Shown here one piece after another: positions 38,501 to 41,500 of a DNA stretch of 64,000 bases. The notes under the pieces were generated by a model. The model worked only from the letters and a program-made list of their open reading frames with translations. It was not told the origin of the DNA and made no database searches. The first letter of the stretch is position 1, and each line of letters starts with the position of its first letter. The DNA comes from Catajapyx aquilonaris (taxonomy: Eukaryota): NCBI GenBank assembly GCA_000934665.2, contig KZ538525.1, forward strand, positions 1 to 64,000. The letters are read 5' to 3'. A program made the position numbers and the translations under genes.

Positions 38501-41500
38501 CAGGAGGATAAAAGAATGGCAACCCTGCATCGTTCATTCAGCTTAGGACCAATAGCAGCGTCCGTCCATTTTGGCGGGAACGCTCCCGATTGGTCAGTTG
38601 CTCAAAAAGTGGCGGGAAGAGCGCGGCAGCGTTGCCATATATCATCTTCATCGCTTGTTAACCACAATTAACTTACCTTTTTTTTCAGTACCCTTCGCCA
38701 GAATGGGACACGGTGACCCCAGAGGCGAAAAACCTAATCAACCAGATGCTGACGGTGAACCCTGCCAAGAGAATCACCGCCTCAGAAGCTCTGAAGCATC
38801 CATGGATTTGCGTGAGTTTGGCTTGTGGCAATAAACACATAACTACTGGGCCTTTTCTCCTCGAACGTTATTATTAAACTTCGCCTTTTTTATTTATTTT
38901 TTAAACTATTTTTCGTTCTTCATTTTCAGCAACGGGAGCGTGTGGCTTCTGTTGTGCACAGGCAAGAGACTGTGGACTGCTTGAAGAAATTCAACGCGCG
39001 GCGCAAACTGAAGGTAAAAAAAAACTACTAAGTCTATTTTCGATGTGGCGAGACATGTCTCTTTGTCGCCAAAGAGTACATGGCGATACCAAGTCGTGAT
39101 AAGTAATCAGGGAATAAAGCAGAAAGCTGTTGCATAATTTTTCTGAGCCGTGTAATGGTCTCAGAAGGCTAATTTGAATAAGTGTCAACAACCTTTACTG
39201 GGCTCTTTGTAAGAGCTTATGTAATTTTTGTGCATCTTCCAGGTCATTACTCGTACGAAGAGTAATGACCTGGACTATGCACAAAAATTACATAAGTGTA
39301 TGTATACACGTTGTCACTGCTAAAACTGATTGTTTCTATTTGTTGGTTCGACTATTGCCTGAAATTGACCCCGCAAAAATTTTAACTGGCGTTGGTTTCC
39401 ATTAATTTTATCTTGTTGTTTAACCTCGGCTTCGCATTGGTTTGGATATGTGGCCAGTCGGCCTATACATATTTTTGTGCCATTGATTTTGTTCCCTGAT
39501 TACATCAATAGAGGCTTGTTAACAGCAGCCCTCTGGCTCCAGCCCTTCATTTTGCGGGTTATTTACAGCAACTTCAACCCTATTGTTTTTGTTAATGCCT
39601 ATTTTTTTCTCGGTTTATTTACAGGGCGCCATCCTCACTACCATGCTTGCAACTCGCAACTTTTCCAGTAAGTACGACGGTCATGGTAAGTACCCCCGCC
39701 CTATGATGCAAGCTGGCCCCAAACGACTAGTTTCTGGTAGAGCCCACATGCAAGTTGGCCAACATATTGATTGCCAATTAAGTATAAAAACTTACCATCT
39801 ATATTCACATGCTGCCACAAAGCATAAAAACTCTACCATGGAATCTCCAGGATTGGGGTTGATAATTATGTGTCAGAGTGCACTCTTCTGTGGAATTTCA
39901 GAAGTGCTCTTCTATCTTTTGTGTTCCCACTGTTATAGTAGATTTATCTGGTTGTTTATTTGCGTGTTCACTATTTCCACTTCTACACCACTACGTGTGT
40001 CACTATTAATTTATTTTGTAAATGTCACTGTTACTTTTAGATAGTTCTCACCTCTCACGTACCGTACATTTGTGGACCGAAAAAAAAAAAAACGGTGGTT
40101 GACAAATTGTTGTGGTCTATTCACCTATCCACCTCTAGTACTGCATATAATTGTATTGTTTTTATAATTGTGTTGAATGCCTGCAATATCTCCGACTGCT
40201 TCACTAAGTGTCACTAGTTTCACTCTCACGCTTTAGCCGTCCACCGCAACACTATTGGTGTAATAACTATTTTTAAAAAGTTCACCATTTAATAGTGACA
40301 AATATGTCGATCGGTTATAACCATGTTAAATTTTAATACGTACAGCAGTGCATCAATCAATAATTTTGTTTGCGTTAATGGGATAGAATTATAACCGAAT
40401 ACGTGCGCTGTGTAGTGAAATTTTAATTCGCACATTTGCCACCATGACACCTTCATTAAGTGTAATAATTGCAGCCGAAATTTTAGCGCTGTTTTTTTGT
40501 ACCGCTTATATATTGCAAAAACACACAACACGGCACGAGTGTTTTACTCACTTTTTTGCACATGTGACGTCTCAACAATCCGCGGTGGGAATATAATAAG
40601 ACAGAAGCAACACAACTCTGTTACAGAAGTGCCTTTTTTTGATTCGTCCAGCTTTCCGGGCGGGGGTCAAAGGTTTAAAGGTTAAAACAAGCCCTCAATA
40701 CATTTTTTTCCCCCCTCATTATTTTGTTCGTTAACAAAATACTTACCCTCTCCTGTATTTGCATACAGTTTTTTACAAAGGGAAGCTAACCAACCAGCTA
40801 GAATACAGATAGAGACACTGTCAAAATTTGTTTAGTGTCAAAGGTCACCGGTTGCAATACTCTATCGCCTCTTTTTTTCTCTCTCTTTCTCAATGATTCC
40901 AGCTCGTTGGACATGTCTGTTTGTGGTCTGTGTCGTAGACTATAAATGGCGTACTATTTTTGGTGTGTGGTATTCCGATGCATCGTAGCCTCTCACTCTT
41001 TTTCCTCCCAAGGAGTTGTTTTTAGATAGATGGTCCTCCCTATCTTTCTATATCCGGTCACAAATAATAATATAAAAAATATTTTTCAAAAGAAATCTAT
41101 TTCTTGGCTGTCACCCTGATCATTCCTTGATGTCAGTTGGGGAGAATGCCAATTAATGGATTAAATTTTATTGTTATTATTATTACCAGTACCGTAGTAT
41201 TTTTTTTTTCTCTTGATCATTGTTGACCGTCTGCTTGACCAGCACATGTAGTTTTTTCCTGTCCTCTTGTAATCTCATAATGTTACGTGCTTGTAGTCGG
41301 TAAGTCGCTTCCTGTGAGTAGTGATTGCCCTTTTGTCTCTTTTTTGCACTGGTAAAACTCCAATGTTGCTACTTCCTGCACTGCAGAAAGTGGTAAGAAC
41401 GAGCTACAAACAAGGATTTCTTCCCCTTTTTTTACTTAAGATGAGCCTCTCTCTTCTTATATACAATATTTTTGTCGAATTTTTTTTCCCCCCTGTCCTC

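Follow-up and report, generated by a model that had tools for sequence, protein, structure and literature searches.

An earlier note on this DNA proposed that two very short exons, TCG (3 nt) and AAAGTG (6 nt), lie together in one intron of a gene of Catajapyx aquilonaris. The question that this locus raises is whether both, one or neither of these motifs is an exon. The window analysed here is the whole stretch of 64,000 nt (contig KZ538525.1, positions 1 to 64,000), and all positions are given on it.

The CaMKII locus and its flanking exons

Comparison of the window with arthropod CaMKII proteins by tblastn, together with the sequence itself, showed that its + strand carries an arthropod CaMKII gene. 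Both motifs are located within the 2924-nt intron 39668-42591 of this gene, between the exon that ends in ...ATRNFS and the linker exon; the gene also has introns of 112 and 118 nt. The exons that border the intron are:

39625-39667, + strand: constant exon, 14 residues and the first base (A) of the next codon; donor gtaagt at 39668
42592-42681, + strand: linker exon, in which GT finishes the split codon and is followed by 29 residues and one base; acceptor tttccag

The calmodulin-binding segment ends within the constant exon, which also carries the RNFS autophosphorylation site, and no tandem NAG is present at the acceptor of the linker exon (42592). The locus is a splicing hot spot, at which the variable linker of CaMKII begins. 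In vertebrates too, splicing of the variable linker starts right after ...RNFS and alters the length and charge of the linker, and the accessible parts of two papers tie it to activation and to Ca2+/CaM sensitivity; the exons involved are tens of nucleotides long, unlike the 6-nt AAAGTG (PMC7141811, PMC12474881). The window's own protein was absent from our protein collection, in which the best match of its C-terminal exon was 83% (the mayfly Cloeon); its hub domain had at most 88% identity to any fetched protein.

The positions of the two motifs are exactly those first noted, TCG at 41297-41299 and AAAGTG at 41387-41392, with the spacing of 87 nt between them corresponding to bases 41300-41386. 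Scripted joins of the exons also reproduced the peptides that had been predicted, namely NFS-S-RS when both motifs are skipped, NFS-IG-RS with TCG, NFS-KSG-RS with AAAGTG and NFS-IESG-RS with both. TCG and AAAGTG are the sole sites of the form YAG-(3, 6, 9 or 12 nt)-GTRAG in the 2924-nt intron.

Sequence and conservation of the 6-nt exon

The AAAGTG site reads cctgcactgcag-AAAGTG-gtaaga, with TGC at 41377-41379 and 41382-41384; it is flanked by a cag acceptor and a gtaaga donor, and a pyrimidine tract is found upstream. Four TGC are present within the last 42 nt before the exon. The features of the site are:

41387-41392, + strand: AAAGTG, putative 6-nt cassette microexon; A/AA AGT G/GT, in phase 1, would encode Lys-Ser-Gly replacing Ser; by comparison the orthologue of NlCaMKII exon 12
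41393-41400, + strand: donor gtaagaac of the microexon, part of a 16-nt block (41385-41400) identical in metagenome loci L056 and L058
41322-41384, + strand: AG-free zone of 63 nt, with a pyrimidine tract at 41328-41347 and TGC at 41345, 41367, 41377 and 41382

We searched both strands of the window for the KSG-coding pattern YAG-AR-WSN-G-GTRAG (K or R, an S-like residue and G, in the right phase). A single match was obtained when 0.05 was expected, at least one match being found in 5 of 100 shuffles, and this sole match falls in the one intron where it was expected.

The intron was then compared with 73 metagenome loci, most of the genomic ones being short or from other animal groups. The 16-nt block AGAAAGTGGTAAGAAC was identical in the same intron of L056 and L058 (effectively one genome), where the AAAGTG block is located 477 nt downstream of the NFS exon. 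The pyrimidine tract and one TTGC upstream of AAAGTG also align with these loci. Hits of the relaxed KSG pattern expected by chance over all the metagenome loci were estimated at about 4-5, and use was confined to L056 and L058, whose hit is exact and lies in the right intron. In four other loci (L005, L012, L013 and L018) the corresponding intron is only 86-112 nt long and is without the microexon. A site in L057 (gag/AAAGCG/gtatca) was discounted for its poor context.

KSG isoforms in other arthropods

An insert of the 6-nt type is present in 62 of 350 arthropod proteins spanning the junction (KSG 40, KCG 11, RSG 6, KSV 3, NCG 1 and KVG 1), and the version encoded by AAAGTG in the window, KSG, is the commonest; SKY...G forms are found in 139 of the 350. 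These KSG/KCG/RSG-type isoforms, from insects and from Portunus trituberculatus, show a two-residue insert at exactly this junction, with Ser changed to Gly, and they are protein models from other genomes, compared as proteins alone. KSG forms are annotated in Halyomorpha, Nilaparvata, Sogatella, Laodelphax, Lygus, Homalodisca, Bradysia and Nasonia, and also in Neodiprion, Diprion, Athalia, Orussus, Cryptotermes, Zootermopsis, Ischnura and Portunus.

The same exon has been cloned from planthoppers. 'KS encoded by exon 12' is the description given for Nilaparvata lugens CaMKII (PMC6627886), and this NlCaMKII exon, also present in Laodelphax and Sogatella, resembles AAAGTG in its intron, its length of 6 bp, its phase and its product NFS-KSG-RS. 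A form with an alternative donor, SKYDxxG, adjoins exon 12 in planthoppers as it does here (PMC6627886). KSG clones account for 42 of 149 (11/52, 17/51 and 14/46, summed from Table 1 of that paper), and for the clones in this table, which were derived from whole-body cDNA, S, KSG and SKYDVQG are the sole starts (PMC6627886). The accessible text of the paper does not call exon 12 a microexon or address its regulation, while our comparison is made on genomic sequence (PMC6627886).

On these correspondences in sequence, AAAGTG is this arthropod's copy of an exon that is already published and annotated. The 6-nt part of the original proposal was thus borne out as a real-looking cassette at the start of the linker, whose product NFS-KSG-RS is an isoform known in other arthropods. 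The prediction that standard annotation would miss both exons was mistaken for the 6-nt exon, as the KSG type is annotated in the 16 named species and was published in 2019 as NlCaMKII exon 12. The KSG exon cloned from planthoppers would be an old arthropod feature, its sequence and upstream signals being kept in this genome. The finding adds little further, since this exon had been published and annotated before and TCG is still a guess.

Among annotated relatives, the mayflies Cloeon and Neocloeon come closest on the C-terminal exon; of their 40 isoforms, 20 are S, 20 are SKYDVQG and none is KSG. The exon could have been missed there, or it could have been lost in some lineages; gene models without the KSG exon, such as the mayfly models seem to be, would be incomplete. 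The mayfly annotation is also what favours a reading in which neither site is used in C. aquilonaris, AAAGTG being a relic and the products being limited to the S and SKYDGH-G forms. We consider this reading very improbable, since an unused 6-mer would not stay intact. AAAGTG still has its AG and its donor, and these, together with the 6-mer itself and 8 bases of the intron, match the distant genome of L056 and L058 without a difference; the tract and the UGCs upstream have been retained as well.

The 3-nt candidate

The TCG site reads gtgcttgtag/TCG/gtaagt, with AG before and GT after the motif, and any 3-nt insert at this place keeps the frame. Its features are:

41297-41299, + strand: TCG, candidate 3-nt exon that would give NFS-IG-RS; unsupported, and could be a chance AG/GT pair
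41288-41296, + strand: acceptor region TGCttgtag, with one UGC (TGC 41288-41290), a weak pyrimidine stretch and a YTNAY-like CTCAT at 41274-41278
41300-41305, + strand: consensus donor gtaagt behind TCG

The pattern YAGNNNGTRAGT gave 3 matches in the window when 1.28 were expected, with at least 3 in 12 of 100 shuffles; scaled to the intron, the expectation is about 0.03. The same intron from other organisms (about 93 kb) contained 10 YAG-NNN-GTRAG, 3 of them with GTRAGT, which corresponds to about 0.09 per 2.9 kb. Chance alone would seldom place a YAG-NNN-GTAAGT site in this one hot-spot intron (0.03-0.09). A TGC within 12 nt before AG is expected at about one in six sites, the density in the intron being 52 TGC in 2924 nt. 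In view of these match expectations and of the rate of about 1/6 for TGC, TCG is not clearly above chance.

Neither IG nor IESG was found among the 350 arthropod junction proteins, and an isoleucine after NF(S/T) was likewise absent from all 350; this is weak evidence of absence, because software for gene prediction or read alignment seldom places an exon of 3 nt. Both forms are also missing from the 149 planthopper clones. The alignment of the AG/GT frames with L056 and L058 gave opposite outcomes for the two motifs: AAAGTG is kept within 16 identical bases, whereas no counterpart of TCG was found upstream of AAAGTG in these loci, which amount to one comparable organism. The 3-nt exon was therefore not upheld, and the same is true of the proposed pairing of the two sites as a unit, since nothing links TCG with AAAGTG.

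Exons of 3 nt are known from Drosophila TnT and mouse Ncam, which are like TCG in their size and their AG/GT flanks and which, according to the accessible part of the source, were proven by cDNA (PMC8042270). TCG differs from them in that it is without transcript, isoform or conservation support. The arthropod precedent of TnT is one of the points in favour of a reading in which both sites are real and used in combination, a lineage-specific TCG and the conserved 6-nt exon giving IG, KSG and IESG (PMC8042270). This reading also draws on the YAG and perfect GTAAGT of TCG, with the low chance expectation given above, on the UGC located 7-9 nt before the AG of the site, and on the spacing of 87 nt, a workable length for a short intron in a gene with introns of 112 and 118 nt. 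A protein with NFS-IG-RS does exist in a marine transcript (L007), but the insert of L007 is TAG, which fits better a tandem NAG acceptor of the kind that the window lacks. The absence of IG and IESG from the proteins and clones and the lack of conservation of the site in L056 and L058 also go against this reading. The pyrimidine tract that leads from the likely branch site to the AG of TCG is poor as well, and we regard the reading as unlikely. It would produce at least six linker starts from one 2.9-kb intron (S, KS, IG, KSG, IESG and SKYDGH-G), a repertoire that we hold to be equally doubtful. If it were true, the RNFS serine would be followed at +1 by a hydrophobic residue in the Ile form, which would amount to a splice-controlled switch of the autophosphorylation site.

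The GTAAGT at 41300 could be explained in another way, either as a U1-binding decoy or enhancer for the microexon 87 nt downstream or as the 5' splice site of a longer poison exon that contains a stop. Its match to a donor is perfect, and the AG-free zone of the microexon starts 17 nt further downstream; an in-frame stop is soon met when reading back from 41299. However, this GTAAGT is not conserved in L056 and L058. It is one of three in the intron, the two others being the real donors at 39668 and 39686, and the density of the window (19 on the + strand of 64 kb) predicts about one further GTAAGT in 2.9 kb. An explanation of this kind appears improbable, somewhat more so than the use of both sites.

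We favour, with a probability of about 0.75, the reading in which the 6-nt AAAGTG is a genuine conserved cassette microexon (Ser to Lys-Ser-Gly) and TCG most probably an AG/GT pair that is not used.

Recursive splicing at TCG was also considered and was rejected, as the upstream exon joined to TCG rebuilds no donor at the junction.

Recognition of the exon and relation to eMIC-dependent microexons

Exon definition would need an exon much longer than AAAGTG. Recognition of AAAGTG most likely relies on the upstream intron. The signals would be the distal pyrimidine tract, the 63-nt AG-free zone and the four UGC, which together match the architecture of UGC motifs, AG-free zone and pyrimidine tract reported, in the accessible part of the source, for exons that depend on eMIC (Srrm234) (PMC8797185). 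AAAGTG has the sequence features of this class: it is very small, UGC motifs lie close to its 3' splice site, and both an extended AG-free zone and a pyrimidine tract precede it. The likeness to the neural microexons controlled by eMIC proteins (Srrm234, or SRRM3/4) is in size, UGC, AG-free zone and tract, that is, in sequence architecture. A point of difference is that KSG is common in the whole-body cDNA of planthoppers (PMC6627886).

Two Drosophila CaMKII exons, of 54 and 66 nt, are listed in table S2 of the fly study, both in group ASE (ordinary alternative); a 6-nt CaMKII exon is absent from this table (PMC8797185). The main text of that paper, in its accessible part, makes no mention of CaMKII (PMC8797185). 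Our literature search found no CaMKII microexon tied to Srrm234.

In a local hairpin (41366-41396) the microexon and its donor (41388-41396) pair with the upstream UUGC tract (41366-41374); on the unlikely reading in which both TCG and AAAGTG are exons, this hairpin could be the device that decides inclusion. The fold of 41250-41420 is unremarkable (z = -1.62), with 12 of 200 shuffles folding as well.

Forms of the linker start and their effect

Two further features of the locus bear on the forms that can be made at the junction:

39668-39685, + strand: 18-nt extension of the constant exon by use of a second donor (gtaagt at 39686), giving the SKYDGH form; counterpart of planthopper exon 11b as described in the accessible text of PMC6627886
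41387-41389, + strand: AAA, possible 3-nt form of the 6-nt exon, made with the internal GT of AAA/GTG/GTAAGA if this is a tandem donor; it would give NFS-KS-RS

Inserts of one codon are found at the junction elsewhere: KS in Portunus, KG in L001 and IG in the L007 transcript. Tandem splice sites 3 nt apart occur as NAGNAG acceptors and GYNGYN donors, and such sites would explain the one-codon variants. The inserts of L007 (TAG) and L001 (AAG) look like tandem acceptors, and AAA/GTG/GTAAGA could possibly be read as a tandem donor that gives NFS-KS-RS, the form annotated in Portunus trituberculatus.

The set of isoforms that is supported in other species would then consist here of S when the exon is skipped, KSG with the 6-nt exon, SKYDGH-G with the donor 18 nt downstream and possibly KS with the inner donor. 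Inclusion of AAAGTG would replace the single Ser after ...ATRNFS by Lys-Ser-Gly, an isoform known through cloning and annotation from many insects and from a crab. The linker would gain two residues, with a Lys at +1 of the RNFS autophosphorylation serine, right behind the calmodulin-binding segment, and the KSG insert would slightly shift calmodulin sensitivity or autophosphorylation. We know of no test of a two-residue change in the CaMKII linker. The first residues behind the calmodulin-binding segment would be a deliberately varied position in arthropod CaMKII.

The conserved alternative donor that adds 18 nt (SKYDGH) and the putative tandem donor giving NFS-KS-RS had both been overlooked in the earlier note.

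CaMKII gene and candidate microexons

A tblastn search with arthropod CaMKII proteins, combined with reading of the splice sites, placed a CaMKII gene on the + strand of the window, its exons spanning about 11405 to 51647. The encoded protein is most like an arthropod CaMKII, closest in kind to those of hemimetabolous insects, as judged from its sequence; the C-terminal exon found its best match (83%) in the mayfly Cloeon within the protein collection, and in the hub domain none of the proteins fetched (from a stick insect, thrips, beetles, termites and a cockroach) exceeded 88% identity. 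The relevant features are as follows.

39625-39667, +: upstream exon (GGC...TTTTCCA), encoding 14 residues and ending one base into the following codon; donor gtaagt
between 39667 and 42592, +: intron of 2924 nt holding both candidate sites
41297-41299, +: 3-nt site, gtgcttgtag/TCG/gtaagt
41387-41392, +: 6-nt site, cctgcactgcag/AAAGTG/gtaaga
42592-42681, +: linker exon, in which GT completes the split codon and 29 residues follow
about 44600-44675: a linker exon, counterpart of 'Insert 1' (EDKSKGVVDRSSTVIAKDPE) with its RxxT/S site in the planthopper study (PMC6627886)

The earlier note had proposed TCG and AAAGTG as paired neural microexons. Its motif positions and the 87-nt spacing were exact, and the intron contained no other YAG-(3, 6, 9 or 12 nt)-GTRAG site. 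The peptides that the note had predicted were likewise obtained when a script assembled the segments from their coordinates: NFS-S-RS when both are skipped, NFS-IG-RS with TCG, NFS-KSG-RS with AAAGTG and NFS-IESG-RS with both. The observation is confirmed, while the interpretation is supported in part, as the two sites fared differently.

The window also holds at least two ambiguous bases (about 33.5 kb and about 43.0-43.1 kb), seen as X in the ORF translations of 33472-33693 (-) and 42928-43257 (+), and a long AAT-type run at about 34.0-34.1 kb.

The 6-nt site corresponds to a known exon

Three protein searches and one cluster look-up collected 395 proteins, of which the 350 with an (R/K)NF(S/T) junction were counted.

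Forms found after NFS (proteins of 350)
S (skip): 89
SKY...G: 139
6-nt-type insert (two residues): 62 (KSG 40, KCG 11, RSG 6, KSV 3, NCG 1, KVG 1)
SKC: 6
KS: 2
RGVG: 4
KCGGG: 2
Long spider insert: 3
Linker-exon anchor not matched by the counting pattern: 43

KSG was present in 16 named species, from Hemiptera, termites, a damselfly and Hymenoptera to the fly Bradysia and the crab Portunus, while the isoforms of Cloeon/Neocloeon carried S (20/40) or SKYDVQG (20/40) and no other form. In three planthoppers from which CaMKII was cloned, the association domain is reported to start with S, KSG or SKYDVQG, the KS being encoded by exon 12, and the KSG clones of Table 1 sum to 42/149 (11/52, 17/51 and 14/46) in whole-body cDNA (PMC6627886).

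A YAG followed by a K/R-S-like-G hexamer and GTRAG occurred once on both strands of the window, against 0.05 expected, and this match fell within the intron in question. A 16-base block, AGAAAGTGGTAAGAAC (41385-41400), was unchanged in L056 and L058, two overlapping metagenome contigs of one organism, 477 nt after their NFS exon. Their coding exon differs from that of the window at many synonymous positions; the upstream pyrimidine tract ending in TTGC could be aligned as well. The site, what it can encode and its conservation are established, and other arthropods do have the isoform. On this comparative evidence we conclude that AAAGTG is the Catajapyx copy of the CaMKII KSG exon. The note's statement that both microexons would escape standard annotation does not hold in general for AAAGTG, with KSG present in public proteins and in PMC6627886, although it may hold for some genomes, such as those of Cloeon/Neocloeon with their S and SKYDVQG isoforms. 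The finding amounts to one more member of a known microexon family with an unproven neighbour, and it adds little that is new because the family is already published.

Recognition of the 6-nt exon

An exon of 6 nt is too small for definition across itself, and recognition probably depends on these upstream signals:

41322-41384: AG-free zone, 63 nt
41328-41347: pyrimidine tract
41345, 41367, 41377 and 41382: four TGC motifs

The same upstream architecture is described in PMC8797185 for fly exons dependent on the Srrm234 eMIC domain. For AAAGTG no result pointed to such dependence: table S2 of that paper lists no CaMKII exons beyond one of 54 nt and one of 66 nt, classed as ordinary alternative exons, and KSG is frequent in whole-body planthopper cDNA (PMC6627886).

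A predicted hairpin (41358-41403) pairs UUGCUACUU (41366-41374) with AAGUGGUAA (41388-41396) and also CUGC with GCAG, and encloses the microexon and both splice sites; its UUGC arm includes one UGC motif. At -16.7 kcal/mol it was more stable than mononucleotide shuffles (-7.6 +/- 2.5), 2/500 of which folded as well. The L056 analogue was weaker (-9.2 kcal/mol) in a comparison of two sequences, and the wider 171-nt fold was not special. As a regulatory element the hairpin is a lead only.

Other splice choices at the junction

Two choices were absent from the earlier note. A second perfect donor lies 18 nt past the first (gtaagtacgacggtcatg/gtaagt; extension 39668-39685, donor to 39691, +) and adds SKYDGH, the conserved SKYDxxG form that is the commonest alternative in insects and decapods; planthopper exon 11b is its counterpart. 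The donor of AAAGTG is itself a tandem, AAA/GTG/GTAAGA (41387-41398), and splicing from its inner GT could leave a 3-nt exon, AAA, with NFS-KS-RS as the product. Portunus trituberculatus has this form in its annotation (P0176), and a transcript-derived protein (P0174) carries it too; if any 3-nt exon at the locus has outside support, it is AAA.

Tandem splice sites follow NAGNAG at acceptors and GYNGYN at donors. One-codon inserts were read in a marine transcript (L007, about 970-1010: NFS-IG-RSMVKK, TAG) and a soil transcript (L001, about 559-600: NFS-KG-RSIIAKK, AAG). The AG at the end of each insert suggests tandem acceptors. The linker-exon acceptor of the window (tttccag/GT) has no tandem.

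Marine transcripts L022/L023 read NFS-IGA-KS... and the near-identical L024 reads NFS-T-KS... (also L008, L010, L014, L019 and L020), a different short alternative segment with an Ile-Gly start at the same junction, which is not a simple cassette since different codons follow the insert (GCG vs ACA). L003 and L004 are versions of one transcript that differ by a 24-nt insert there (NFS-SHQTTTSSG-RS vs NFS-S-RS).

The 3-nt candidate

The proposal of TCG as a microexon found no support. IG or IESG at the junction, and Ile after NF(S/T), were each found in 0/350 proteins, a weak form of evidence since 3-nt exons are hard to annotate; neither peptide is among the planthopper clones of PMC6627886, and nothing similar to the site precedes AAAGTG in L056/L058. 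YAGNNNGTRAGT occurred 3 times in the window against 1.28 expected, with at least 3 in 12/100 shuffles (about 0.03 scaled to the intron). The equivalent intron of other organisms (about 93 kb) held 10 YAG-NNN-GTRAG, 3 of them GTRAGT, or about 0.09 per 2.9 kb. With 19 GTAAGT on the + strand of the window, one spare copy in the intron is ordinary, and a lone TGC before AG is expected at about 1 site in 6 (52 TGC in 2924 nt). In favour of TCG, the host intron is a splicing hot spot and one-codon inserts are known elsewhere at this junction (Portunus KS, L001 KG, L007 IG). We consider it improbable, at roughly one chance in eight, that TCG is a real 3-nt exon.

Another TAG-CAT-GTAAGT site (27322-27333, +), in the intron of about 12.7 kb between exons 23783-23842 and 36570-36626, is probably due to chance.

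Effect on the protein

Inclusion of AAAGTG would lengthen the linker by two residues and place a Lys beside the RNFS serine, right behind the calmodulin-binding segment. That serine is the Ser-315 autophosphorylation site according to PMC6627886, and in mammals linker length and charge position are reported to be tied to autophosphorylation balance and Ca2+/CaM sensitivity (abstracts of PMC7141811 and PMC12474881).
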